In this document: in pieces, positions 8,724-41,705 of the stretch
How positions within the stretch are numbered: the first letter of the stretch is position 1
Layout of the letters: the number at the start of each line of letters is the position of its first letter
From: Candidatus Woesearchaeota archaeon
GTDB taxonomy: Archaea; Nanobdellota; Nanobdellia; SCGC-AAA011-G17; PNOQ01
Direction of reading: 5' to 3'
Length of the DNA: 64,000 bases
Assembly: GCA_018652625.1 (NCBI GenBank)
Contig: JABIBT010000018.1
Span: forward strand, 4,566 to 68,565
Translations under genes and position numbers: made by a program
The notes under the pieces: model-generated
The model's input: only the letters and a program-made list of their open reading frames with translations
The model's database searches: none
Told to the model about the DNA's origin: nothing

Positions 8724-8766
8724 CAATATTTATATAGGATAACCCACAAATATTTTTTAAAGAGGG

Positions 8767-11700
8767 GTGGGTTATTTGCATAAAAAGAGGATAAAAGATA
8801 GAAGCTATTACTATACTACAATCCGTGAGAAGACCGGTAAAACCAAAACTATCTATTTGGGGGTCAATAGAAGAAAGGCAGTAGAAAAAGAAAAATCTCT
8901 TGGGATAACCCACAAAAAGTCTTCACACTTTATAAGTGTATTTTTAGTTATTTTTGCAATTCTCTCACTAGGATTAATAGGTTTCTCTTTTACTGGTTTT
9001 GTTGTTGAAGACGTAACAATTTCAGATATAACAGAAGTAGATAGCCCCAAAGAATTAGACCTAGAATTTGAAGAAGTAGTAGAAGAAGAAACAGAAGAAA
9101 TAATTTTGGAGGAAGAAGTTGAAACCAATGAAACGGAGATTGTTGAAGAAAAACCAGAAATAACAGAAGAAATAAACGAAACAATAGAACCTGAGATAAA
9201 TCAAACTGAAGTAAACCAAACCGAAGAAATAAACGAAACAGAAATAGTTGAAGAAAAACCAGAAATAACAGAAGAAATAAATGAAACAATAGAAATTAAC
9301 GAAACAATAGCAATAAACCAAACAGAAATAATTCTAAATACAACTAATCAAACAGTAATTAACCAAACCCTAGAACAGAATAAAAATATAACAGAACTAT
9401 ATTATGAAGTAATAGTAAACCAACAAGTAAAATGGGAAAAAGCAGTTGAACTTGAAAAAGAAGCTACCTCCTTAGAAGTAAAAATACCAAAAAAAGCAAA
9501 TAATATCACAATAACAAAAATAAGTGAACAAAAGAAAGAAACAAAAGAACCATATGTTGAAGCAAAAGAAACTAACATAATAACTGGAAATTTTTTCAGA
9601 AATTTAATAACGGGATTTGCAATATTTGAGGAAAAATCAGACGAACAAACCATAAAGATCAAAGGGCCACTAAAGGGAGCAATAGTGGAATATTATATGC
9701 CAGGTCCAAAAACAGAAGAAAAACAAATCTCGCAATGGAAAAAACAAATTATTGTATCAAGTGAAGAACACTATGAAAATATTTTAACATATACAAATAT
9801 ATCTAATTTTCCAGAAGAAGCAATTAACCTATATCATTTAACAGAAAAAGGGAGAGTGAAAACAGAATTTATATCAAATGACAAAGACGAAGATGGGTTA
9901 ATAGATTACATAGAATGGATAACCCCCCATCTAAGTAATGAAACATACGAAATAGAAATAACAATTTTAAATGTACAATCCTACCCTTCAGTTGGTGGAA
10001 ACTGGACTGTTTATTTTAACACAACTGGACAATCCGATTTAACAATAACTGGAATAAATGATACATATTTCGGGATAGATTTAGAACTTATAGAAATAAA
10101 ATGTGGGGACAAACAACTTCCCTACGAAGTAGGAGAAAATTCAATAACAGTAAAAAACTATACTTGTGAAAACACGGGTTCAGAAACAAGTAAAGTATTA
10201 ACTCCCGGAAAACATCACTTGGAATTCAATTTCGGAGGACAAATAGCGCATGCACATAATTTAGCAACAATCTCAACTTGTCAAACTCTAAGCGTAGCAA
10301 ACGAATATTACATATTGGATTCAGATATTCCAAATGATGATGGAACATGTTTTACAATAGGTGCAACAAATATAACTTTAGACTGTGAAGGTCATACAAT
10401 AGATGGAGACGGAGACGCTTCTGGATACGGAGTAATAATAAACAATGCAAACTACGATAATTTAACAATAACAAACTGTACAATTCAACAGTTTGCAAGA
10501 AATGTGTATGTTGGAGCAAGTTCAGATGATATTAGATTAGTTAACTCAAATTTCTTGGAAGGATATTATGATGGAGTTTTAACTTATTCTGTTCAAAATA
10601 TGTTTATAGAAAACAATACCTTTTCAGGATTGAATGAGTATGGTGCTTACTTCTGGCACTCTAGCTCAACATATGGAAATAATTGGACTATAAATAATAA
10701 TACTTTTACTGGAGGAACCACGTCCTCGGATTATGGCGTACAAATTGGATATCTAGATAACTCCACAATAACTAACAATTCATTCATTGGAGGGACAGGA
10801 TCAACATATGGGTATGGCGGAGCATATCAATATGGACACAATGTTATTATAAAAAACAATACCTTCGAAGGGAATTCCGTAGACAGAGATAGAGGATTAT
10901 ATTTACAATATGCAGATAATTTTACAATAACAAATAACACATTTTCTTCTAGCATAAATGATTACGCGTCCTTAGAAATGTATAGTACAACTAATTCAAG
11001 AGTCTTTAATAATTCAATGACCTCTCCTGCATCTTACGGACTAACTATTAGCTATTATTCATCAAATAATCAAATTGAGAATAATAATGTAACCTCTAGA
11101 AATGGAGTATATTTTGCAACATATTCTACAGACAATAATCTAACAAGCAATAGTATAATTTCTTCAACACTTTATGGGGTCTATATGAATAGTTATAATA
11201 CTGGAAACAGAATTGTAAACAATAACATTGTAGGTCAAACTTATACAGTATATGCAACAGCCTATTCTAACAATAATGATTATATTAATAATACGATGGT
11301 GTCGAATGCAAATTATGTCGTATATATGAATGACCATGCAGGAAATAATTTATTTTATAATAACGATATGACAAGCTCAGGTACATATGCTATCAGAGCA
11401 TATCTCGCTTCTGGAGGAAATAATTTTACTAAAAATAACATGACCTCTCCAAATAATGCTTTAAGATTAGAAAGCGATTGTAATGATAATATAGTGGATT
11501 CAAACATTATAAATTCAACAGCAAATATAGGAATTTACATAGTTACTGGATCAAGTGAAAATAACTTAATAAAAAACAATATAGTTTATGGTGGAACAAC
11601 AGCATTTCAGGATTCATCGGTAAATACAAACCTTAGATTAGTAAATAATTCTTTTTTTGCTACAAACGGGTGGGGAGCAGTTATAGTTGCAGGCACAAAT

Positions 11701-14700
11701 GTATCAATAATAAATAATACAATTATATCTGGAACCTCAAATGACAATGGATTGGGACTGAGTGATGTTTCTGTGGGAACTATTGAAAATAATATCATAA
11801 ATGCAACTGCTCACGGGCTATATATTTACACGGGAACAGATAATGTCAATATAACAAACAATAACATTTCTGCAGATCTAGGTAGTGGAAATAATTATTA
11901 TGGTGCCTATTTTACTCAGGAGAGTGTAAATAATAGACTAGAAAACAACACTATAAGCAGTCTTGCTGAAGACGGAATATATATTGATGATTCTCCAAAT
12001 AATATATTTATAGGAAATACTATTACTGCTGGATCTAACGCAGGTTGGACAACAGACGCAGGAATATACTTAACCTACTCAAGTAATAACAATTTCACAG
12101 AAAATATAATAAACAACACAGGGGGACCGGGAGTTTATTCTGCGTATAGTCACAATAATAGTTTTCACGGAAATAAATTCGATTCAAATTATGTTGGAAT
12201 GTACCTTGCATATGGGTCCATGGGGGAAACAGACTTTGCAAGTAACACAATATTAAGTACGTCTCAAGCATACGATTATAGGATATTAGGTAATCTAGCA
12301 GCAAATTCAAATATTTCTTTTTTGAATTGTAGTCTTGATGTAGATGCAGTTTACATGACTGATGATTATAGCTATGTATCTCAATTATGGTATGCAACTA
12401 TCAATGTTTCAAATACAAATGGACAAGTAGAAAATGCAACAGTTTTGGTATATGATGTAAATAGTACACTAGTTTCTACAAAAACAACAAACAGTAAAGG
12501 AATAACAGACAAAGTGCCCTTAAAAGAATTTACATCCGATAGACTAAGCAATTATAATTTAGACAAAACATATTACAATAACCATAGTTTCCAAGCTTCT
12601 GAAGTAGACCATTTTTCAGGATCTAATACTTCAAATATGACGACTAGTAAAATGGTTTATGTCAGATTAGAAGACTGGCCTTTAGTTACAATTCTAACAA
12701 ATTATCCAGAAGTTAAAAGTTATCAAGGGAATAGCCTTTTACAAATAAGAGTAAACGAAACAAGACGTTCTGATTTAATTAATAATACCAATGTATCAAT
12801 AACCTTTGCAAATGGGACTACATTAACTTTTGCAATGGTAAATGGAACGAACGGAGATCCAAATCTATGGGAATATAATTACACAATAAATCTTTCAGAT
12901 GTTGGTGGAACATTCAATATTACTGCAAAAGCCTATAATTCTACAGGATACAATTATATCAATGATACCGACACTGGATTTTATATAGAGCCAAACATAG
13001 TGTGGTTCAAAACTTATAATTTAAGTGATAAAGCTAAATCTTTCTTTGCAGAAAACGAACCATCTAAATTAAAAACTTTAGTACATAATGCTTACGAAAA
13101 TTATCCTCAAGTAGAGGTTAGAGATGCGGAGGGAAGCGTGGTATTAAATAAAACCCCTATGACAAGTGAAGAAGGAACAATATTTAATATTAGCTACATA
13201 ACTAACGGTTCATTAGGTTTTTATAATGTAACAATATATTCTAATGGAACAGACACAGAACAGTTTGAGTATTCATTCTACCGAGGAACAAACTGGCAAA
13301 ATAACTTTACAAATAATGATAGTTCCATTTATGCCTTTTCAAAAGAAATAAATATATCTGAACCAAATATCGGAGAAAGATTCTTTTATCCAGTAGATGC
13401 CAATATAAATTTCACAGAAACAGTAAATTTAGATTCGATAAGAGTTACATTATATAATGGAACAACATATACAGAAATTCCTTCACAAATTTATAATTAT
13501 ACTGCAATAAACAATACGGCAGAAACAGCAAATGTTGTTTGGTTAGCTTCATTAAGTAAGGGAGAGAATAGAACATATCATATTCATTATAATGATGTTA
13601 CTTTAGGAAATGCAACCTACAACACAGACTTAACTACGTATACAACAACAAGTAATTATAGATTTTTTAATACAAGTTATTATAGTATAAGGACCGATTC
13701 CGACGAGGGAGGAGTTATTGATGCTGCCTGGACAAAACAAGGAAATACAGATAATATAGCTGGACAAGACCCTATGCAAAGCTCCCCTTCTATACTTACA
13801 ATAACTTTAGATTCTTATTCCGCACACAAAGATCAAAGTCCAACAATAAGCTTAGAACATTCTGGTCCAGTTTTCAATAAATATACAATTTCTGGATATT
13901 TAAGCTCTTCTGACGGAACTCAAAACACAAATTTACCATTTAACCAAACTTACTGGACCTATGCAAAAAATAATTATTTGATTTATGAAACCAACTTGAA
14001 TTTCTTATCCGCATATAATCTTGAAAACCTAATAAGCCAGTTTGTATCGTACGGGGAAGGATATTTCAATAAATTTTCATGGGGACTTTCCAACGGATCA
14101 TATTATAATTATTCCTTAACTACAGGAAATGGGCCAGATTATACAAATTTAAATATAAGTATGATTTGGTTAGGGGTTTATAATTCAGAGAACAAAACAT
14201 CAATGGCAGATATTTTCTTGAATAGAACAAGTACTACTGAAGAAACCCCGGAAGGATACTTTTATGATCAGGCCTCATTTGAGTTTTACAAAAGATACTT
14301 AATTTCAAGCCCAACAGCAGTAACAAACGGAAGTAATTATACCTCAAAAATAGCAAGAATATTCTGGGATGGGGAAGACAAGTATGAAACCTTGAATGAT
14401 ACCTATTATATCTTACAAAATGATATAACTTATACCACTGGAGGAATAAAATATGGAGATACAACAAAATCATATTTCACACAATATAACCATTCACCTA
14501 CGCTTCCAAATGATAACGAGAGTATTAATTGTTTCTCATACTGGATGGACGAACTGAGATTAAAGGAAGGGTATGTAGAAACAAATGCAACAGGTACAGC
14601 AATCAACCACACCGTGTCAATAACTGGAAATGAAAGTTGGGTTAATTACACAATCCCTGCAGCAGATTTAACACTAAACAGAACATACTGTAAGTTTTTT

Positions 14701-17070
14701 GCTAAAGATATTGGAAATAACATAAATTCAACACCAAGAATATTTTTTAATGTTACAGATGTTTCTCCACCAATAATAGAAAACATAACAAATACTCCAA
14801 ATAGCTCAGATGCTTTGGACCCAGGAGTAATAATAAATGTTACAGCAGACGTTAAAGATAAAATAAATATAGATACTATAGTTTTACAATATCAATATAA
14901 TCATTCTGGAGTGTGGAATGAAACAAATATGGCCATTGTTACAAACAATAGTTACATAGCAAACTTTAGTGCAGCAAATATAGGAAATTATTCTTATAGG
15001 ATTAATGCAACCGATAAAGTAGGAAATAGTAATCTTAGTAGCACAACAAGTGTTACTGTGGACTATGATTTATCCTGGCAAATTTCTCCAGCTTCTTTTG
15101 AAGCAGTTTCAGGACTTATAGGATCTACACTAAATGTATTTAATATTACCGTAAATAATACAGCAGATTTTGAAGCAGATTTCAGTTTCACTTCTACAAG
15201 AGATGGATGGATTTATTATAATAATTCATTAGAAACATACACAATCACACTGGGCCCAAAAAATAGCACAACTTTAGAAATTAATGCAAGTTTACCAGTT
15301 GATATTGGAGAATACCCTTTAACAGTCACAGTTACCCATGGAAACTCAACTGCTGATCCTGCGACGAGAACTGTTTCTGGAGATGTGGTGGCATATCAAG
15401 CAGGACCATATGTATGGACAAGTTTTTCAACTTATAGCGTTTCAGTACTATCTGGAGATTCGAATGTTAACTATACTGTAAGAATTAAGAATTTAGGTAA
15501 TGAAACCGCGGAAAATATAACAAATACCATAACTTTACCGGAGGGGTGGACAACAAGTGAGAACCTAGTTTCAACATTTAGTAGTATAATTGCAAATGCA
15601 TATGAGTATCATAGTATTTTAGTAAATATTCCTTCTAGCGCAGAATCTGAGATTGTAACAATGATAACTACTCCGTTAGCAAATAATACAAATCAATCTC
15701 ACGAAGAAGAATTAGAAATAACAGTTGTAGATCCAACCGTAGCTTCATCTGGATCCGGTGATGGAGGGGGCGGAGGAGGAGGCGGCAGCGGAGGCGGCAG
15801 CGGAGGAGTTCCATTCAACCAAGAAGAGTCTGAAAGATTTTTTAGATCAGAACAAATATTTGAGTTAGTCAGAGGAGAAAATCAAGAATTTATAATTGAG
15901 ATAGAAAATCCATATGAGACGGATGTAATGAAAAATCTAAAACTTAAATTAATGGGATTTGATGAAAACTACTTACATTTCTCTCCAAAAATAATTAGGG
16001 AATTAAATCCTGGAGAAAAAGAAAATATTAGTATAAGGATAACTGCCCCAGCATATTTTGTAAAAGGAGAATATCAACTAGAGTTCAAAATTAATGGAGA
16101 TTTAATAAAAAACACTACAAAAACAATCCCAATAATTTATACTAAACATATTACACTGTATGTTTTTGAGGTTTCAAGATTGGACGCCATTGATTATAGA
16201 AACAACGCAGAAGAACACATTGATGAAATGACTTCAAATGAGTTTAAAACAGAAGAGGCAGAAGGATTATTTCGAGAACTTGGAACAGCATACAACGAAA
16301 CAGAATTCAAACAAGTTGAAGAGCTATATGAACAAATCTATGATCTTTATGTAACTTCAAATGAAGCAAATAAAGGAATAATAGAATTAGAAAATAAGGT
16401 AGAAGAAGCAGAAAATAAAAAAATACTTATAGAAAAAACAAAAAGATTGCTTCACCTAGCAAAATCTTCTTTTGAAAGAGGGGAGTACAAAAGTGCTATA
16501 GACAGGGTAAAGGAAGCAAAGCTAACTCTTGCCTTGGAATATGGTGGAAAATATGTAAAAGAAGCCATTTACTCGATGAAAGAGAATCCAAAAGAAACAA
16601 CAATAGGATTTTCATCTTTCGCATTTTTTGTTATTGGGACTTCAGTCTTCTCGAGATATAGATACTTAAAGAGAAAACTAAAAAAATTGTTGGGAGAAGA
16701 AAATCTTTTAATGGAATTAATGAAAGCAATACAAATAGAAGTATTCGAAAGATCAAAAATGTCTATGAAAGAATATGGCGATGCCATGATGCAGTATGAA
16801 GAAAGATTGAATAAAGTTCTAGAAGATACATTAAAGTTTGAAAATAAGAAAAAGAACTTGATGAAATTTAAATCAAAAGGGAAAAAATTTAGGGAAGAAA
16901 GAGAAAAATTACTTGGACTCATAAAGGAAACTCAAAAAGCATATATCTCGGAAGGAAAATTTGAAACTAGAATTTATGAAAATAAACTAAAGTCTTATTC
17001 AACAAGATTGGCAGATATTGAAGAACAGTTGGCCACAGCAGAAGTTAAAAAAGCATTTAAGAAAAAATAA
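8767..17070 (+). CDS. giant (2767 aa) surface protein with an N-terminal signal-anchor TM, acidic tandem repeats, N-glycosylation-sequon-rich parallel beta-helix repeats, a poly-Gly linker, a C-terminal TM and a cytoplasmic coiled-coil tail
   Basis: Uninterrupted 8.3-kb ORF with a GTG/TTG-type start. TM segments are at aa ~55-78 and at 'IGFSSFAFFVIGTSVF' near aa 2610. 'xNNTF/I..G' repeats recur at ~22-25 aa periodicity, as in right-handed beta-helices. N-x-S/T sequons are very numerous. The C-terminal 150 aa are K/E-rich with a heptad-like pattern. Confidence 0.7.
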   Translation: MGYLHKKRIKDRSYYYTTIREKTGKTKTIYLGVNRRKAVEKEKSLGITHKKSSHFISVFLVIFAILSLGLIGFSFTGFVVEDVTISDITEVDSPKELDLEFEEVVEEETEEIILEEEVETNETEIVEEKPEITEEINETIEPEINQTEVNQTEEINETEIVEEKPEITEEINETIEINETIAINQTEIILNTTNQTVINQTLEQNKNITELYYEVIVNQQVKWEKAVELEKEATSLEVKIPKKANNITITKISEQKKETKEPYVEAKETNIITGNFFRNLITGFAIFEEKSDEQTIKIKGPLKGAIVEYYMPGPKTEEKQISQWKKQIIVSSEEHYENILTYTNISNFPEEAINLYHLTEKGRVKTEFISNDKDEDGLIDYIEWITPHLSNETYEIEITILNVQSYPSVGGNWTVYFNTTGQSDLTITGINDTYFGIDLELIEIKCGDKQLPYEVGENSITVKNYTCENTGSETSKVLTPGKHHLEFNFGGQIAHAHNLATISTCQTLSVANEYYILDSDIPNDDGTCFTIGATNITLDCEGHTIDGDGDASGYGVIINNANYDNLTITNCTIQQFARNVYVGASSDDIRLVNSNFLEGYYDGVLTYSVQNMFIENNTFSGLNEYGAYFWHSSSTYGNNWTINNNTFTGGTTSSDYGVQIGYLDNSTITNNSFIGGTGSTYGYGGAYQYGHNVIIKNNTFEGNSVDRDRGLYLQYADNFTITNNTFSSSINDYASLEMYSTTNSRVFNNSMTSPASYGLTISYYSSNNQIENNNVTSRNGVYFATYSTDNNLTSNSIISSTLYGVYMNSYNTGNRIVNNNIVGQTYTVYATAYSNNNDYINNTMVSNANYVVYMNDHAGNNLFYNNDMTSSGTYAIRAYLASGGNNFTKNNMTSPNNALRLESDCNDNIVDSNIINSTANIGIYIVTGSSENNLIKNNIVYGGTTAFQDSSVNTNLRLVNNSFFATNGWGAVIVAGTNVSIINNTIISGTSNDNGLGLSDVSVGTIENNIINATAHGLYIYTGTDNVNITNNNISADLGSGNNYYGAYFTQESVNNRLENNTISSLAEDGIYIDDSPNNIFIGNTITAGSNAGWTTDAGIYLTYSSNNNFTENIINNTGGPGVYSAYSHNNSFHGNKFDSNYVGMYLAYGSMGETDFASNTILSTSQAYDYRILGNLAANSNISFLNCSLDVDAVYMTDDYSYVSQLWYATINVSNTNGQVENATVLVYDVNSTLVSTKTTNSKGITDKVPLKEFTSDRLSNYNLDKTYYNNHSFQASEVDHFSGSNTSNMTTSKMVYVRLEDWPLVTILTNYPEVKSYQGNSLLQIRVNETRRSDLINNTNVSITFANGTTLTFAMVNGTNGDPNLWEYNYTINLSDVGGTFNITAKAYNSTGYNYINDTDTGFYIEPNIVWFKTYNLSDKAKSFFAENEPSKLKTLVHNAYENYPQVEVRDAEGSVVLNKTPMTSEEGTIFNISYITNGSLGFYNVTIYSNGTDTEQFEYSFYRGTNWQNNFTNNDSSIYAFSKEINISEPNIGERFFYPVDANINFTETVNLDSIRVTLYNGTTYTEIPSQIYNYTAINNTAETANVVWLASLSKGENRTYHIHYNDVTLGNATYNTDLTTYTTTSNYRFFNTSYYSIRTDSDEGGVIDAAWTKQGNTDNIAGQDPMQSSPSILTITLDSYSAHKDQSPTISLEHSGPVFNKYTISGYLSSSDGTQNTNLPFNQTYWTYAKNNYLIYETNLNFLSAYNLENLISQFVSYGEGYFNKFSWGLSNGSYYNYSLTTGNGPDYTNLNISMIWLGVYNSENKTSMADIFLNRTSTTEETPEGYFYDQASFEFYKRYLISSPTAVTNGSNYTSKIARIFWDGEDKYETLNDTYYILQNDITYTTGGIKYGDTTKSYFTQYNHSPTLPNDNESINCFSYWMDELRLKEGYVETNATGTAINHTVSITGNESWVNYTIPAADLTLNRTYCKFFAKDIGNNINSTPRIFFNVTDVSPPIIENITNTPNSSDALDPGVIINVTADVKDKINIDTIVLQYQYNHSGVWNETNMAIVTNNSYIANFSAANIGNYSYRINATDKVGNSNLSSTTSVTVDYDLSWQISPASFEAVSGLIGSTLNVFNITVNNTADFEADFSFTSTRDGWIYYNNSLETYTITLGPKNSTTLEINASLPVDIGEYPLTVTVTHGNSTADPATRTVSGDVVAYQAGPYVWTSFSTYSVSVLSGDSNVNYTVRIKNLGNETAENITNTITLPEGWTTSENLVSTFSSIIANAYEYHSILVNIPSSAESEIVTMITTPLANNTNQSHEEELEITVVDPTVASSGSGDGGGGGGGGSGGGSGGVPFNQEESERFFRSEQIFELVRGENQEFIIEIENPYETDVMKNLKLKLMGFDENYLHFSPKIIRELNPGEKENISIRITAPAYFVKGEYQLEFKINGDLIKNTTKTIPIIYTKHITLYVFEVSRLDAIDYRNNAEEHIDEMTSNEFKTEEAEGLFRELGTAYNETEFKQVEELYEQIYDLYVTSNEANKGIIELENKVEEAENKKILIEKTKRLLHLAKSSFERGEYKSAIDRVKEAKLTLALEYGGKYVKEAIYSMKENPKETTIGFSSFAFFVIGTSVFSRYRYLKRKLKKLLGEENLLMELMKAIQIEVFERSKMSMKEYGDAMMQYEERLNKVLEDTLKFENKKKNLMKFKSKGKKFREEREKLLGLIKETQKAYISEGKFETRIYENKLKSYSTRLADIEEQLATAEVKKAFKKK
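9133..9294 (+). repeat. in-frame tandem repeat (two ~57-nt near-identical units ~105 nt apart) encoding 'ETEIVEEKPEITEEINETIE'
   Basis: Near-identical sequence at 9133-9189 and 9238-9294 ('a-c-r-g-a-r-a-t-w-gttgaagaaaaaccagaaataacagaagaaataaa-y-gaaacaatagaa'). Confidence 0.7.
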
Positions 17071-17099
17071 TCATAATAGCAAAACTTAAAAAAGCAAAA

Positions 17100-18173
17100 A
17101 TGAAAAAGGTATATATGAATAAAAAAGGATTTCTCGGATTGCCCTTTGGATCGGGTAAGAAAAAGGAAGAAAAGAAAGTTGAGAATAAAGAGAATTCTGA
17201 AAAATCGGATATAGAAATTGAAAAGAAAACAGCAAAACCAAAAGAATCCGAAGAAACTATAAAAGATTACAAGGCAGGATTGGGGGAAGATCCCACGATA
17301 GAAACACTCACTGAAGAGATGAAGATTGCAAAAAGAATAGCTAAAGAATATACAGAAGAAGAAGGAGTATCAAAAAAACAAGAGGAATCAGATGAATCAT
17401 CTTCAAAAGAAGTACCAACCTATAAAACAGGTATAGCTGGATTTGATGTTTTATTGGGCGGGGGAGGAATTCCGTGCTCTACAAGTGTATTGGTGGAAGG
17501 GGGCCCGGGGTCTGGAAAGACTATTTTTTGCTTACATGTGGCACAGTCTTTTTGTGAAAAGGGAAAAAAAGTGCTATATATGAGTTTTGAGGAACCAGAA
17601 GAAAGATTAATACAACATATGGAATCATTCGGAATGCCCGCAAAAAAATACGTAGAAAATGGAACATTAATAGTTAGGAGATTCAACGCTTTAGATATTG
17701 CAAGATCGGTAGAAGCCCTATTATCGGAAGCTAAAAAAGAACTGTTAATAGAGGTACAACCTATCTTAATTCCACAAGATATAGAACCAGATTTGGTATT
17801 AATTGACTCTCTTACATCTATTGCTTCAGCATTTTCTGGAGAAGACAATAGATTCAGAATTTATATGGAACAAATGTTTAGATATTTAGAGAATAATAAA
17901 ATGAGCTCCCTATTGATTAGAGAAGTTGCAAATCCCGGACATATAGGGGAGGGACATTCTGCATCTGATGAAGCAACAAGCTTTCTATCAGACGGGATTA
18001 TTGTTTTTTATAATGTGGTTCTCAATACGGGAAAAAGAACAAGGGCTATTGAGATATTAAAACTAAGAGGGCAACCTTTCGACAGAAGAATTGTAGAGGC
18101 AGAAATAATCAACAAAAAAGGGTTGATGGTATATCCCAAAAGAACACTAAAGGGAAAATATACACTAACTTAA
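17100..18173 (+). CDS. KaiC/RadA-like single-domain RecA-superfamily ATPase with a disordered K/E-rich N-terminus
   Basis: 'TGIAGFDVLLGGGGIPCSTSVLVEGGPGSGKT' (Walker A in a KaiC-type context), 'LVLIDSL' (Walker B region) and 'RAIEILKLRGQPFDRR', the KaiC-family signature. Confidence 0.65.
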   Translation: MKKVYMNKKGFLGLPFGSGKKKEEKKVENKENSEKSDIEIEKKTAKPKESEETIKDYKAGLGEDPTIETLTEEMKIAKRIAKEYTEEEGVSKKQEESDESSSKEVPTYKTGIAGFDVLLGGGGIPCSTSVLVEGGPGSGKTIFCLHVAQSFCEKGKKVLYMSFEEPEERLIQHMESFGMPAKKYVENGTLIVRRFNALDIARSVEALLSEAKKELLIEVQPILIPQDIEPDLVLIDSLTSIASAFSGEDNRFRIYMEQMFRYLENNKMSSLLIREVANPGHIGEGHSASDEATSFLSDGIIVFYNVVLNTGKRTRAIEILKLRGQPFDRRIVEAEIINKKGLMVYPKRTLKGKYTLT

Positions 18174-18180
18174 TTAAAAA

Positions 18181-19182
18181 ATGAAAAAAATATATTTATT
18201 TCTTATAGTTGCTCTTATTTTAGTACCATTTGTACAATCTGAAGAGGTCTCAGATATAGAAATAGAGCTACAACTTAAAATAAAAGAAGTAGAAATCATA
18301 GTTTTTGAACTTAGAGATGAAGGATTCAGTATTCAAAGAGTAAACGATACACTCGAAGCAGCAAAAGGAATTTTTGAAGTACAATCTCAAAGAAAAAGTA
18401 GGCAAAAAGATTTTACATTAGTTGACAAATACCTAGACGAAATTTTTGAATTAAAGAAGCAAGCATATGTAACAAGAGATGAGATTAATTATGTTTACGA
18501 ATTTTATAACGATACTAAAAAAAATAAACCGGATATGAACCTATCAGAAGTTGACAAAATTTTAGAAGAGATGCAATTTGAATTTGATAGTGAAAGATAT
18601 GATAGAGCATATGATTTATCAAAAAAGGCATACTCAAGAATAATTGACATAGAGGGGAGCTATACAGCAGTAAATTTAGCGTATCAAGCTACAGCAAGGA
18701 CTCTAAAAAATTTCCTTATAGATAATTGGTTATTATTACTTTCTATTTTAATTGGAGGTACATTCTTATATTTTTTATTTAGAAATAGAATAATTTTCTT
18801 TAAAACCAAACTAAGAATAAGATATTTAGAACGACAAAGAGGAGTATTAGAACAATTAATTAAGGAAACACAAAGCGGATATTTTGAAAAATCAACAATT
18901 GCAGAGTCTACATATAGGATCCGGACAAAAAAATTCTCAGATATGACTAGAGATATAAATAGACAACTACCTTTATTGAAAGAGGAATTGGCTAAAAGAA
19001 AGAAAGGAGAAAAGCCATTTGAGGAGAAAGTTAAAGATCGAAGTAAGAATAATTCAAAGAAAAAAAAGAAAAGAAAAGGGAGTTTCTCTATTTTTAAGAA
19101 GAAAAAACAAAATAAAATAATTAAGAAAAAAGTTGTCAAAAAGAAAGTTACGAAGAAAAAAGTAACAAAAAAGAAGAAATAA
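18181..19182 (+). CDS. bitopic membrane protein with a signal peptide, coiled-coil ectodomain, one TM helix and a poly-lysine cytoplasmic tail
   Basis: N-terminal 'IYLFLIVALILVPFVQS', an internal TM 'WLLLLSILIGGTFLYFLF', and a C-terminal KKK-rich tail. Separated by only 7 nt from the KaiC-like gene. Confidence 0.45.
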   Translation: MKKIYLFLIVALILVPFVQSEEVSDIEIELQLKIKEVEIIVFELRDEGFSIQRVNDTLEAAKGIFEVQSQRKSRQKDFTLVDKYLDEIFELKKQAYVTRDEINYVYEFYNDTKKNKPDMNLSEVDKILEEMQFEFDSERYDRAYDLSKKAYSRIIDIEGSYTAVNLAYQATARTLKNFLIDNWLLLLSILIGGTFLYFLFRNRIIFFKTKLRIRYLERQRGVLEQLIKETQSGYFEKSTIAESTYRIRTKKFSDMTRDINRQLPLLKEELAKRKKGEKPFEEKVKDRSKNNSKKKKKRKGSFSIFKKKKQNKIIKKKVVKKKVTKKKVTKKKK

Positions 19183-35537: not shown

Positions 35538-36035
35538 CTAAACAGAAACACAACAAATGTTAGGCGAAATAAAGCCTGTAACATCTCCTACATTTTTTTC
35601 ATCTTCTAAACAAGTATCTCCCCCAACTACATTAACTATTCTTCCACCAAAATTTTCACATTCTTCAGGAGTTAGAGAAGTTTCTTTTACTTCCCAATCT
35701 TCAAGAGTTACCTTAATCCTATCTTTGCCTTTTTCTATTTCAACCACAAAACAACCCGGGCATCTTGCAGAAACAACTTCAATGATTGTAATGCCTTTTT
35801 CATAACCTAAAAATTCAACTGCTATCTTTGCAGCATCTTTCTGATTTTCATTTAATTCCCATTCCCTTAAACAAGCGTTAACATCTTCATTATAACTATA
35901 TCCTGCTGGACCTAAACAACCATTTTCATCTCTTTCTCCACCAACCGGATTTACTTCAACTCTACGTTGGACAGTTAGTAATAAGCCTAGAATGATTAGT
36001 ATAAGTATAATAACAAAGATAGTTATTTTTTTCAT
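35538..36035 (-). CDS. secreted Cys-rich protein
   Basis: Signal/TM 'ITIFVIILILIILGLLLTV'. About 10 Cys. Confidence 0.4.
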   Translation of the reverse strand: MKKITIFVIILILIILGLLLTVQRRVEVNPVGGERDENGCLGPAGYSYNEDVNACLREWELNENQKDAAKIAVEFLGYEKGITIIEVVSARCPGCFVVEIEKGKDRIKVTLEDWEVKETSLTPEECENFGGRIVNVVGGDTCLEDEKNVGDVTGFISPNICCVSV

Positions 36036-36658
36036 AAATCAAACACCTCATAGTCCGTTAAAAGTTTAGTTATTCTTGAATCGGCACAGCTCCCAAAACA
36101 ATCTTCCTCAGTCACACAATGGGAAGTCTCACATTCAATTATCCTAGGTTTAATATTACAATTTTCTTCCACCCAGCCAGTATTAACATATAATCCACGA
36201 ACTTCTTCCCCATTAATCATAAAATACTCATATTCCCTTCTAGCAACCTCTCCAGTAGAAATATCACCATTAAGGTAGGTTACATATCCTCTGTCTTTTA
36301 TCCATTCTTCCGGACAAATTTTTAAATTAGTATATTCAACATCACAACAACAAAGTTTATCTTGTTCTATACAATCCCTTGTTGACCCTCCTGCCCGCGA
36401 TACTTGATTTTTCAAAAGTCCGCACTGCCTTAAACTACAATGCTCCCCAGAAAACTGCTTATTTTCTTCTTGAGACCAAATAGTTTTTGTACACATCTGT
36501 TCACAAGTCAAATCGCCCACCTCGTAGCAAGTATCTGGATCATCTATTAGTTTTATACATTCAGCAGATGAGGGATTGTGGATTTGAGTACAACTAGAAA
36601 TAAAAGTCAAAATAACTATAAAAAAAATCATTACTCTATATTTTCTATACATTTTCAT
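36032..36658 (-). CDS. secreted Cys-rich protein
   Basis: Signal peptide followed by ~20 Cys. Overlaps the downstream gene by 4 nt. Confidence 0.4.
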   Translation of the reverse strand: MKMYRKYRVMIFFIVILTFISSCTQIHNPSSAECIKLIDDPDTCYEVGDLTCEQMCTKTIWSQEENKQFSGEHCSLRQCGLLKNQVSRAGGSTRDCIEQDKLCCCDVEYTNLKICPEEWIKDRGYVTYLNGDISTGEVARREYEYFMINGEEVRGLYVNTGWVEENCNIKPRIIECETSHCVTEEDCFGSCADSRITKLLTDYEVFDL

Positions 36659-38239: not shown

Positions 38240-38926
38240 TTACTCCAACAACCCCTCAGAACTCAACTCCTCCAAAACACTAACCATCACCAAAGGAAAA
38301 GTAACACTAACATCACCAATAACAGTAACAGCATCCGAATCATCTTTAATCTTACCCCAACTTTTAGCTTCATTAGTCGAAGCACCAGACATAGAACCAG
38401 AGTAAGAACTAGCAGTTGTCATATAAACAGCATAATCCAATCCACCATTCAACAAACAAGCCAAAATAGCATGATGCTTACTAATACTCCCTCCTAAAGA
38501 TATCAAACCTTTCTTCTCATCCTGTGAAGTACTAAACAATATATTACTAAAATCCTTAACTACATCAACTATAAAATCAGAATGATCCTGCTGAAACATA
38601 AACAAATGAAAACCAAAAGCCCCATCAGTCACAGCCGGACAAAATATTGGAACTTTCTTCTTAGCAGCCTGAAATAAGATAGAATCCTCATCCTCTAACT
38701 TTAAACCTATTTCATTAAATATCTCAGAAGGAGTAACTCTCTTTTTAGAAGAATAAATATCTTTCAAATAAGGTTTCATCAAATCTTCAAACTTAGCATA
38801 AGATTCTGTTCTAATAAACAAATTTCCAACCCTATTAACTCCTTTTTCATATAATTCAACATCATCCTCTGAAAAGCTTCCTATTACGAAGTCTTCATTA
38901 TGAGCTTTCATAATATCTTCTTCCAA
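38240..38926 (-). pseudogene. deoxyhypusine synthase fragment (C-terminal ~70%; N-terminal ~95 aa missing), a recent duplicate of 39284..40225
   Basis: Protein is ~95% identical to residues ~97-313 of the downstream full-length DHS. The nucleotide sequences are near-identical. The only start available is an internal TTG. Confidence 0.55.
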
Positions 38927-39283: not shown

Positions 39284-40225
39284 TTACTCCTTTAATAAAT
39301 TTTCCTTCTCCAACGCCTCAAGAACCGAAACCATTACCAAAGGAAAAGTCACAGAAACATCACCAATTACAGTTACAGCATCCGAATCATCCTTTATCTT
39401 TCCCCACGACTTAGCTTCATTTGTCGAAGCCCCAGACATAGAACCACTAGAACTAGAAGCAGTTGTCATATAAACAGCATAATCCAATCCACCATTCAAC
39501 AAACAAGCCAAAATAGCATGATGCTTACTAATACTCCCCCCTAAAGATATCAAACCTTTCTTCTCATCCTGTGAAGTACTAAACAATATATTAGAAAAAT
39601 CCTTAACCACATCAACTACAAAATCAGAATGATCCTGCTGAAACATAAACAAATGAAAACCAAAAGCCCCATCAGTCACAGCCGGACAAAATATTGGAAC
39701 TTTCTTCTTAGCAGCCTGAAATAATATTGAATCCTCATCATCTAACTTTAAACCTATTTCATTAAATATCTCAGAAGGAGTAACCCTTTTCTTCTTAGAA
39801 TAAATATCTTTCAAATAAGGTTTCATCAAATCCTCAAACTTTGCATAAGATTCTGACCTAATAAACAAATTTCCAACCCTATTTACTCCTTTTTCATATA
39901 ATTCAACATCATTACTATTAAAATCACCAATTACAAAATCCTCCTTATGGGCCTTCATGATATCTTCCTCAATACCGCCTACAGTAGTTACAACAACATC
40001 AACCAAACCTAATTTTATCAACTGCGCAAAAAACCCACGTAAACCAGAAGTAACCATATTCGAAGTAAAAGTCAAATAAATCTTACAACCATCTTTTTTC
40101 ATTTTAATTATAGTCTCCTTAGCCCTCTCCAAATGAATTGCTTGAAAACCAACTTTACCTAGAGAATTAACTAACGTAGCTACATCCATTCCTTTCTTCC
40201 ACTTCAAATCTTTAACTAAATCCAT
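39284..40225 (-). CDS. dys: deoxyhypusine synthase
   Basis: 'VDVVVTTVGGIEEDIMK' (the DHS signature region) and the N-terminal NAD-binding segment 'YLTFTSNMVTSGLRG'. 313 aa, the archaeal DHS size. Confidence 0.75.
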   Translation of the reverse strand: MDLVKDLKWKKGMDVATLVNSLGKVGFQAIHLERAKETIIKMKKDGCKIYLTFTSNMVTSGLRGFFAQLIKLGLVDVVVTTVGGIEEDIMKAHKEDFVIGDFNSNDVELYEKGVNRVGNLFIRSESYAKFEDLMKPYLKDIYSKKKRVTPSEIFNEIGLKLDDEDSILFQAAKKKVPIFCPAVTDGAFGFHLFMFQQDHSDFVVDVVKDFSNILFSTSQDEKKGLISLGGSISKHHAILACLLNGGLDYAVYMTTASSSSGSMSGASTNEAKSWGKIKDDSDAVTVIGDVSVTFPLVMVSVLEALEKENLLKE

Positions 40226-40609: not shown

Positions 40610-41305
40610 TTAAGGGTTTGCTTCACCACATATCCCCCTAGTTGGCGGGCCAGACGGGCAGTCCATTCCTGCAGGACATCCACTCGGAATATAGTGGTTG
40701 TTAGAACAACAATCATTACAGCTAGGTTCAGAACCAGGAGATAATTGACAGTATTCTCCATCCCCTATACAATCTTCTTTAAAGCCACAACAATAATCGG
40801 GAACACATCCTTCACATTCCAATGGTTCCGAATCGCAAAACGTATATCCTCCAGAGCAACATTTTTCCTCACATGCATCTGGAAGGTGACACTTCTCTCC
40901 ATCGGCCAAACAATAAGAAGAACCCCCACCGGGGCAGATAATTTCACATTGATTATCTATACAATCAACAACTGTACAATGCGCACAAGAATACTCACAA
41001 AAACTACTCTTTGGCATATATGAATCAACCAATTCCCTTATTCTATATTCTTCATTAATATTAACAGAAACATAACAACCAAAAGGACACTTCCCACCAA
41101 AACTCACACAATCCTCTTTAACATTACAATAATTAGCATCATCAATTTCTCCCTTTATATTTGATTCATGAATTGGCAATATTAAAATATCATATAAAAT
41201 CGGAGACAACATCCAAAAAATAATAATAAAAACCAAAACAACCCAAAACCACCACTTCTTAAGTAGATTCATTCTTCCTCCTTTTAAAAAAGTAAATTGC
41301 CCCAA
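40610..41305 (-). CDS. secreted, extremely Cys-rich protein (~40 Cys in 231 aa)
   Basis: Signal-anchor 'WWFWVVLVFIIIFWMLSPIL'. Repeated CxxxC, CC and CxxC spacing. Confidence 0.45.
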   Translation of the reverse strand: MGQFTFLKGGRMNLLKKWWFWVVLVFIIIFWMLSPILYDILILPIHESNIKGEIDDANYCNVKEDCVSFGGKCPFGCYVSVNINEEYRIRELVDSYMPKSSFCEYSCAHCTVVDCIDNQCEIICPGGGSSYCLADGEKCHLPDACEEKCCSGGYTFCDSEPLECEGCVPDYCCGFKEDCIGDGEYCQLSPGSEPSCNDCCSNNHYIPSGCPAGMDCPSGPPTRGICGEANP

Positions 41306-41705
41306 TAAAAATAACTAAAAGAACAACAATAGGAAATATCATTCGGGAAACTTTAAAAAAATCAATAGAAGTAACCATATTTCCCACAGTAATTGGCTTA
41401 CACATGGGTTGCCCAATATATCCTCCCTTTATGTGAGACATAAGACCATCACAACATTCCTCAAAATGAAAAACAAACTCCCCAGATTCTACACAAGGAA
41501 AATCCTTAACATATTCAACACCACAATCACCACTATAAAAATCTCCAATATCACAAGAGTTCCCATCATCAAAAACACATTTTAGATTTTCTCTGTCAAT
41601 AGCATATCCCTGGTGCTCACAAAATGGAGTAACAGCATCCATTGCAGCATAAGAACTAAAAGATAATATAAAAACAAACATCAAAATTAAAATACTTTTT
41701 TTCAT
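41259..41705 (-). CDS. Cys-rich secreted protein with a C-terminal TM anchor
   Basis: Signal peptide, ~12 Cys, and a C-terminal 'IFPIVVLLVIFIGAIYFF' anchor. Confidence 0.4.
   Translation of the reverse strand: MKKSILILMFVFILSFSSYAAMDAVTPFCEHQGYAIDRENLKCVFDDGNSCDIGDFYSGDCGVEYVKDFPCVESGEFVFHFEECCDGLMSHIKGGYIGQPMCKPITVGNMVTSIDFFKVSRMIFPIVVLLVIFIGAIYFFKRRKNEST

Follow-up and report, generated by a model that had tools for sequence, protein, structure and literature searches.

A giant surface protein, its paralogous membrane partner and a KaiC-family ATPase form a recurrent gene module in DPANN archaea

Three adjacent genes and a paralogous membrane pair

A 64-kb stretch of Candidatus Woesearchaeota archaeon (contig JABIBT010000018.1; AT-rich, at ~30% GC), the whole of which we call the window, carries at 8767-19182 the genes for a giant surface protein, a KaiC/RecA-family ATPase and a smaller membrane protein that we term the partner. 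A sequence-only reading of this DNA had described three co-directional open reading frames (ORFs) with gaps of 29 nt between giant and ATPase and 7 nt between ATPase and partner, and they are present as described; no obvious promoter was seen in either spacer. The ATPase and the partner are identical to deposited entries annotated 'hypothetical protein [Candidatus Woesearchaeota archaeon]'. Because a trio of this kind, with a look-alike of the giant's membrane anchor and a conserved ATPase, recurs across DPANN archaea, the giant is probably connected to the inside of the cell and more than a passive coat or glue. An assembly chimera, which the earlier reading had named as a refutation, was considered for the giant ORF and ruled out: aa 45-2767 align with aa 1-2693 of the giant in an independent metagenome-assembled genome (MAG; locus L010) as one high-scoring segment pair at 56% identity over 2765 alignment columns, and a 2765-aa orthologue on another contig lies in the same CysS-FmrO-giant-ATPase-partner-TldD synteny.

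The giant ends in a conserved module that comprises a beta-sandwich, a helical stalk, a transmembrane (TM) helix and a cytoplasmic tail (Table 1), and its C-terminal TM helix is weaker in hydropathy than the N-terminal hydrophobic segment yet conserved across the family. The partner has the signal peptide, single TM helix and Lys-rich tail (34 K/R among its last 65 aa) that had been read from its sequence earlier. The tail of the giant, LIKETQKAYISEGKFETRIYENKLKSYSTRLADIEEQL, resembles the cytoplasmic part of the partner, LIKETQSGYFEKSTIAESTYRIRTKKFSDMTRDINRQL, with a BLASTP match of the two tails at E 0.002, and hidden Markov models (HMMs) of the two families match reciprocally, the matches including the window's giant and partner themselves (E 1.5e-5 and 5.8e-8). 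An HHalign comparison of 27 giant C-terminal modules with 55 partners returned 99.5%, E 2e-22, over 211 columns that span the extracellular helical domain or stalk, the TM helix and the first cytoplasmic hairpin. By these comparisons, the partner and the last ~300 aa of the giant's C-terminal module are paralogous; the partner differs from the module by the absence of the beta-sandwich and the big ectodomain, by having one hairpin and by its basic tail. The AlphaFold2 (AF2) model of the partner (predicted local distance difference test score, pLDDT, 87) is all-helical, with five extracellular helices, a TM helix extending into the cytoplasm and a return helix. In the model of the giant's module the five helices recur in this pattern at pLDDT ~90, and the TM helix and two long cytoplasmic helices come next; its helical part alone is confident, the N-terminal beta-sandwich having no alignment depth.

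Neither the partner nor the giant's C-terminal module has a model in Pfam, NCBIfam or PADLOC. When 1.84 billion representatives were searched with the partner profile in HMMER, 1310 proteins matched at E<=1e-3, counted as representatives at 50% identity, and 324 of them at E<=1e-30. In three of these partners (P0235, P0257 and P0225; P labels denote database protein representatives, and L labels related loci) the cytoplasmic part is extended by 300-600 aa of E/K/R-rich sequence, single-alpha-helix- or coiled-coil-like, of which the Lys-rich tail of the window's partner looks like a short form. A partner-ATPase fusion, considered for the long partner hits, was rejected, the extra length being this charged tail.

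The ATPase consists of a K/E-rich N-terminal extension of ~105 aa and a core (aa 106-357) that matches Pfam KaiC (PF06745; E 6.5e-42, 143.9 bits against a cut-off of 26.6, aa 109-347), which bears out the family and the charged N-terminus assigned to it from sequence earlier. Its best sequence matches in the PDB are KaiC domains (E 1e-37), and its Walker A motif (G134GPGSGKT), catalytic E164-E165, Walker B motif with D236 (LVLID236S) and K321-L-R-G are invariant in a 27-sequence alignment. Like its solved relatives, among them PH0284 with six chains in its PDB entry, the ATPase is presumably hexameric. The protein ends in Y-T-L-T (18159-18170), an instance of the family motif [YF]-x-L-T-COOH, with Thr at the C-terminal end in 84 of 86 ATPase sequences and Leu at -2 in 83; from this constancy it is likely a docking peptide. 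Across MAGs labelled Woese-, Pace-, Nano-, Micr-, Aenigmat-, Iain- and 'Nanohal'-archaeota the core is 55-71% identical and many of its positions are invariant, which makes for a very conserved clade. Both features by which we recognise the module are thus present in the window: the stalk-TM-hairpin part of the giant is homologous to the stand-alone partner, and the ATPase adjoining the two carries the clade motifs RSVEALLSE and [YF]xLT-COOH.

The ATPase scores below every NCBIfam cut-off. It is not a circadian KaiC, because it has a single domain and falls far under the equivalog cut-offs (NF006799, 101.7 bits against 408; TIGR02655, 60 against 546). Identity with ArlH/FlaH was likewise rejected (NF052589, 53.1 bits against 215; PRK06067, 54.3 against 194): no ArlH structure occurs among its PDB sequence matches at E<=1e-5, and no ArlI/ArlJ-type Pfam family was found among the window neighbours scanned or those listed for related contigs. 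The length of its N-terminal extension correlates with that of the partner's basic tail (Spearman 0.59, n=33), a relation to which we give little weight because it is not phylogeny-corrected and is taken from longest-ORF starts.

Table 1. Features of the giant-ATPase-partner locus (window coordinates)
Feature	Position	Strand	Details
9-mer TAACCCACA, first copy	8740..8748	+	just downstream of TATA-like TTTATATA, ~28 nt upstream of the TTG
Giant surface glycoprotein gene (predicted)	8767..17070	+	2767 aa as listed, GTG start
Clade-specific basic N-terminal cytoplasmic peptide HKKRIKDRSYYYTTIREKTGKTKTIYLG...	8776..8898	+	in frame in L002, L008, L009
9-mer TAACCCACA, second copy	8906..8914	+	within G-I-T-H-K codons, just before the first TM
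N-terminal hydrophobic segment: signal anchor or signal peptide	8917..9009	+	aa 51-81; Kyte-Doolittle (KD) 19-mer peak 2.75
Acidic sequon-bearing repeat region	9010..9366	+	aa 82-200; 42 D/E, 3 K/R
Right-handed beta-helix region	10327..12516	+	aa ~521-1250; bounds follow our own segmentation
NEW3/NPCBM-associated beta-sandwich domain	15457..15645	+	aa 2231-2293; Pfam PF10633, E 1.6e-10
Gly/Ser hinge SSGSGDGGGGGGGGSGGGSGG, joining variable ectodomain to conserved module	15745..15807	+	from sequence
Giant conserved C-terminal module	15835..17067	+	aa 2357-2767 (~410 aa): beta-sandwich, helical stalk, TM, two cytoplasmic helical hairpins
Giant C-terminal TM helix	16597..16656	+	aa ~2611-2630, KD 1.43; aligns with partner TM, helical in AF2 model
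Giant cytoplasmic tail	16657..17067	+	basic, helical, ~137 aa; two Q..[YF]......EY......Y..RL hairpin repeats
KaiC/RecA-family ATPase gene	17100..18173	+	357 aa, single-domain
Partner membrane protein gene	18181..19182	+	333 aa
Partner domains	18181..19182	+	signal peptide 1-20, stalk 23-181, TM 182-203, hairpin 204-276, Lys-rich tail 277-333

Recurrence and conservation of the trio across DPANN

To describe the gene neighbourhood of the ATPase clade, 80 genome loci and five metagenome loci were fetched and all of their ORFs were scanned with local HMMs. The partner adjoins the ATPase in most of 84 related DPANN loci, and a large ORF with the giant C-terminal module is found by local HMM in 36 of the 84. 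Where at least 1.5 kb of sequence is available on either side of the ATPase, the partner is present, stand-alone or fused, in 40 of 47 loci; with at least 9 kb on either side, the partner or a fusion occurs in 19 of 22 loci and a large ORF with the C-terminal module in 17 of 22. Complete proteins with this module range from 1063 to 3068 aa, apart from a 375-aa remnant in L002. The partner and the ATPase form the constant core, because three of the five well-flanked loci without a giant still carry the partner.

The order giant-partner-ATPase is the commonest, the order of the window (giant-ATPase-partner) is that of its clade, and ATPase-giant-partner and divergent arrangements are also seen; the trio stays together despite these changes, while the flanking genes differ by lineage. 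Giant and partner often overlap by 4 nt, and in several cases they are fused in a single ORF, with the giant preceding the partner in L074, L034, L084, P0146, P0161 and P0214 and the partner preceding the giant in P0191; the membrane topology is consistent in both fusion orders. The co-occurrence in most loci, the 4-nt overlaps and the giant-partner fusions establish the trio as a genuine cross-lineage module and not a chance neighbourhood, in line with the earlier suggestion that the three genes belong together.

Conservation is graded from the outside of the cell to the inside. The median pairwise identity is 0.665 for the ATPase core, 0.43 for the hairpin of the partner against 0.26 for its ectodomain, and 0.39 for the hairpins of the giant against 0.29 for its stalk, and most of the invariant residues (Q, Y/F, E, Y, R) sit in the hairpins. 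The ectodomains of the giants are non-homologous between lineages: that of the window contains a beta-helix, those of L004 and L005 contain Laminin_G_3, that of P0191 contains FG-GAP-like Asp-rich repeats (judged by eye), and some others are without any Pfam domain. Beyond the closest relative, similarity to the window ectodomain is limited to short beta-helix or Ig-like stretches. From these comparisons we conclude that giant ectodomains are swapped between lineages.

Several related loci contain further components beside the trio. One subclade, in which the N-terminal extension of the ATPase is very basic and its C-terminus reads ...NF[NS]LT, carries a ~150-aa signal-anchored beta-rich protein divergently next door (L040 8945-9400, L050 4082-4534, L065 2690-3127, L069 8679-9167 and seven more loci), followed in some loci by the giant; this fourth recurrent component does not occur in the window. 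A Micrarchaeota locus (L003 3805-7154) encodes a second, different KaiC-like ATPase of 311 aa beside a 799-aa protein with a von Willebrand factor A (vWA) domain, 3 kb from the partner-ATPase pair. Directly upstream of the giants of L004 (3066-3284) and L005 (1354-1566) lie genes for 70-72-aa winged-helix-like proteins with weak Pfam helix-turn-helix matches, which are possible dedicated regulators. A 172-aa ORF of L005 (1568-2086), just upstream of the giant, combines a signal peptide with a near-copy of the giant's last ~90 tail residues and has the look of a leftover from recombination or cassette exchange at that locus.

Ectodomain, amino terminus and neighbouring genes

The sequence-only reading had described the ~2500-aa middle of the giant as rich in beta-helix repeats. 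The giant is indeed a member of the right-handed parallel beta-helix class by repeated matches above cut-off to Pfam Beta_helix (PF13229; E 8.6e-48, 162 bits, six stretches, the best at aa 995-1162) and NosD (PF05048; E 6.3e-27, 94.8 bits, five stretches, the best at aa 680-837), but the matches are, on our segmentation, confined to roughly aa 520-1250, and the remainder of the middle is beta-sandwich-like sequence that includes the NEW3 domain. The extreme richness in sequons noted from the same sequence is real, the ectodomain having 123 N-X-S/T sequons where composition-preserving shuffles give 59 +/- 7, and the giant is probably heavily N-glycosylated on this count. Cys is scarce (10 of 2767 residues). 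Degenerate tandem repeats of 18-21 nt occupy 9145-9327, within the acidic repeat region, and a GGAGGCGGCAGC repeat lies at 15778-15806 within the Gly/Ser hinge.

The N-terminal hydrophobic segment of the giant follows a basic 50-aa stretch (15 K/R against 4 D/E) and is restricted, together with the basic peptide, to a Woesearchaeota subclade comprising the window, L002, L008 and L009, with a split form in L010; most other giants of the family start with ordinary short signal peptides. Calling the protein double-anchored, as had been done, is therefore fair for the window ORF if the first TM segment is not cleaved, but the arrangement is a subclade feature and the conserved anchor is the C-terminal one. 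Of the two cytoplasmic ends thought to be coiled-coil-like, the C-terminal tail fits and the N-terminal peptide does not.

The peptide is in frame with the TM segment after an ATG in L008 and L009, and in L002, where the ectodomain is missing. In L010 it is instead a separate ORF of ~41 codons (1743-1868) in another frame, its stop overlapping the TTG start of the giant; the split may be genuine, or due to a frameshift or a sequencing error. Because many of the differences between its relatives are synonymous, the peptide is truly coding, and from its conservation in the subclade the giant more likely starts at TTG 8776 (M-HKKRIK...) than at GTG 8767, in agreement with the ATG-YKKR starts of L008 and L009. 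We take it to resemble Arm-type beta-sheet DNA-binding domains; it has no Pfam match. In L002, a 375-aa ORF (800-2121) joins the peptide and TM segment, out of frame, to the giant C-terminal module. The ATPase on that contig is identical to P0004 and has the same DEAD_2 helicase neighbour, and a 2723-aa version of the giant lies on another contig; either a population variant lacks the ectodomain or the assembly has collapsed here. The coding region of the peptide is flanked by the only two copies of the 9-mer TAACCCACA in the window (0.41 expected), and the pair is kept at a spacing of 166-167 nt in L002 (769-777, 936-944) and L010 (1705-1713, 1871-1879); it may be a regulatory or recombination site.

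The other window neighbours, by Pfam, are CysS, an AsnS/AspS-type synthetase, a kinase-like P-loop protein, FmrO, a metallophosphoesterase and TldD. A viral or mobile origin of the trio was considered and dismissed, no relatives of the ATPase being found in IMG/VR, as was a defence system, PADLOC giving only weak P-loop-level matches to the ATPase (best E 5e-6, 24 bits). Farther along the window, on the minus strand, a 228-aa ORF (38240-38926) repeats, truncated but nearly identical, the C-terminal two-thirds of the neighbouring 313-aa gene (39284-40225), which is deoxyhypusine synthase-like as judged by sequence; a small membrane-protein ORF separates the two copies of this partial tandem duplication. 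Three ORFs on the same strand (36032-36658, 40610-41305 and 41259-41705) encode Cys-rich predicted secreted or membrane proteins in a stretch of unusually negative GC skew.

Proposed function and relation to known systems

The functional reading is based mainly on the conservation pattern, in which the exterior is variable, the membrane pair is conserved, and the cytoplasmic elements and the ATPase are the most conserved. On balance, we favour a heteromeric surface receptor or adhesin, made up of giant and partner, that acts in signalling or control through a KaiC-like hexamer docked on its cytoplasmic tails. The hetero-oligomer would be held together by the stalks and TM helices of the two proteins, the ATPase would bind to their conserved cytoplasmic hairpins, and ATP binding, hydrolysis or autophosphorylation would be coupled to the state of the surface protein. 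Such coupling may run outside-in, reporting host or surface contact, or inside-out, with control over how the adhesin clusters, which conformation it takes or how it is turned over. We prefer a role in signalling or control because archaeal KaiC-like ATPases have been proposed as signal-transduction hubs (as cited in PMC5847659 and PMC6393860), with CirA of Haloferax volcanii acting as a KaiC-like regulator of surface structure (PMC10983859), and because the parts that are conserved remain in the mature complex and nothing resembling a translocon is linked. The homology of the giant's conserved cytoplasmic tail to the partner tail also argues against a purely passive adhesin, so that the earlier view of the giant as more than an adhesin of that kind can be kept, and the secretion or mechanochemical role attached to that view is shown by none of the analyses run.

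Several observations weigh against a receptor or adhesin that is read out or controlled by the ATPase. The docking of the ATPase on the tails is putative, being deduced from sequence. Among the 22 well-flanked loci, five are without a nearby giant and three without a detectable partner; occurrence of the ATPase and membrane genes without any giant had been put forward in advance as a refutation, and it is found in part, three of those five loci having the partner. No partner-ATPase fusion was found in the nine longer partner-family matches scanned. Some MAGs carry two modules (L015 with L025; L072 with L079), and because the ATPase is uniform its specificity for a given partner is unclear. No transcription factor, kinase or phosphatase is consistently linked to the module; the small winged-helix genes precede the giant in just two loci inspected, both of Pacearchaeota type, and are absent from the window.

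An alternative that we consider unlikely is a biogenesis machine, in which the ATPase and the partner would export, insert, fold or quality-control the giant, possibly as a post-translational translocation or extraction motor, and would have no role once it is on the surface. A very large secreted protein that is tightly, often translationally, coupled to an ATPase and a membrane protein would suit such a machine, RecA-fold hexamers are commonly translocases and, to our knowledge, Archaea lack SecA. However, the conserved stalk, TM helix and tail are permanent in the mature giant and copied by the partner, which suits a stable complex more than a transient chaperone; the partner and the ATPase occur without a nearby giant in several genomes, most giants have ordinary Sec signal peptides, and no SecY/YidC-type or pore-forming component is linked, the partner itself having a single TM helix. 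A marginally less probable alternative is a structural one, with the giant as an S-layer-like or tetrabrachion-like coat, the partner as a SlaB-like anchor and the ATPase as a loosely connected housekeeping enzyme. A signal peptide, dense sequons and a helical stalk followed by a C-terminal TM helix are the layout of several archaeal surface-layer (S-layer) proteins, and the giant shows this layout as well as few Cys. The anchoring of the S-layer in DPANN has moreover been described as unknown for a cultured Micrarchaeon (PMC8975820). A housekeeping neighbour would, however, not be expected to remain linked while gene order and context change, as the ATPase does in at least seven labelled DPANN lineages, and in both membrane proteins conservation is highest in the hairpins, a sign of a cytoplasmic ligand. 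Wholesale replacement of the ectodomain and MAGs with two modules are, in addition, more typical of adhesins or receptors than of a lattice coat.

We regard as improbable a mechanochemical device in which the hairpins would act as a shaft or lever in or against the ATPase ring, hydrolysis moving, retracting or tensioning the giant. Its appeal is one of resemblance only, in that the modelled helix continuous from stalk through membrane to cytoplasm, the helical hairpins and the presumed hexameric RecA-fold ATPase would recall FliJ and the F1 gamma subunit in RecA-fold hexamers. No stator, pore or extra motor component is linked, KaiC-type domains, to which the ATPase is closest by sequence, are slow ATPases, and the ATPase fails the ArlH model. 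That the three genes form no functional unit at all, their adjacency reflecting shared ancestry or synteny alone, seems to us very improbable indeed: the closest relatives do have the window's flanking genes CysS, FmrO and TldD, but the trio persists in unrelated contexts, in rearranged orders and in gene fusions.

A wider form of the favoured receptor or adhesin reading, which we offer only tentatively and with real doubt, takes the module as the core of a hitherto unrecognised apparatus for adhesion and signalling across the membrane throughout DPANN, an 'archaeal integrin' with a KaiC-like hexamer as its drive or its readout. If so, the exchangeable ectodomains would recognise hosts or surfaces, the ATPase would turn contact into a response or control attachment, and the module would be a central molecular player of the episymbiotic lifestyle. 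A large share of the diversity of Archaea belongs to DPANN, and for most of these organisms a life attached to other cells is assumed; few of the molecules behind attachment and its regulation are known, and the anchoring of their surface layer is an open question (PMC8975820). The module is a concrete, testable candidate apparatus for DPANN host or surface interaction and gives a defined membrane context to one clade of enigmatic archaeal KaiC-like ATPases. The partner and C-terminal-module families can be used to locate surface or host-interaction genes in any DPANN genome, even where the ectodomain is unrecognisable.

Among known systems, archaeal KaiC-like ATPases of the hub type, reportedly surveyed as signalling hubs by Makarova, Galperin and Koonin in 2017, share with the ATPase of the module a single KaiC/RecA domain with Walker A, the catalytic EE, Walker B and KxRG, and, as with CirA, a place beside surface-structure genes and a plausibly regulatory role. 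The ATPase described here differs in forming a distinct, very conserved DPANN clade with its own C-terminal [YF]xLT and in being linked to a paralogous single-pass pair instead of archaellum or pilus genes or REC/PAS-type domains. ArlH (FlaH), to which the sequence-only reading had likened it, is also a KaiC-like single-domain ATPase with a membrane-associated surface machine; the analogy reduces to the shared superfamily, given 53 bits against a cut-off of 215 and no ArlI/ArlJ-type family among the neighbours examined. A secretion system described by Makarova in 2015 (arCOG01314, MoxR, vWA) was set aside, as it has other components, an AAA+ MoxR ATPase and vWA proteins. In the literature on KaiC with DPANN or Woesearchaeota, on giant surface proteins and on attachment organelles we found no account of the module, with the proviso that the supplements of the 2017 survey might list the neighbourhood, and none of the papers searched names both KaiC and Woesearchaeota.

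The giant has the layout of C-terminally anchored S-layer-type proteins, with an N-terminal signal sequence, a sequon-rich ectodomain, a helical stalk and a C-terminal TM helix. SlaA/SlaB of the Sulfolobales and tetrabrachion of Staphylothermus share with it a Sec signal, a potential for heavy glycosylation, a beta-rich ectodomain, a helical stalk and a C-terminal TM helix, and SlaA/SlaB has a separate, smaller stalk or anchor subunit to which the partner may be likened. In contrast to these systems, the anchor subunit here is a paralogue of the giant's own C-terminus, conserved cytoplasmic hairpins are present on both proteins, an ATPase is co-encoded and the ectodomain is exchangeable. SPEARE proteins are defined by serine protease, adhesion and restriction-endonuclease domains in one giant protein, a combination that the present giant, without protease or nuclease Pfam domains, does not have. 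It shares with the multi-domain SPEARE giants of Nanohaloarchaeota (PMC9563170) and giant adhesins such as SiiE (PMC6272769) its very large size and its repeat- and beta-rich extracellular part, of the kind thought to mediate cell-cell contact. Its secretion is not by a type I system, and what sets the present system apart is the conserved stalk-TM-tail module together with the paralogous partner and the ATPase. Integrins offer an analogy in their two single-pass subunits, large ectodomain and short conserved tails able to recruit a regulator, to which the FG-GAP-like Asp-rich repeats of P0191, seen by eye, may be added; the two are unrelated in sequence and fold, and the protein on the cytoplasmic side here is a RecA-fold ATPase. 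The proposed coupling of a KaiC-like ATPase to surface or membrane proteins involves here two protein families, each without a Pfam, NCBIfam or PADLOC model.

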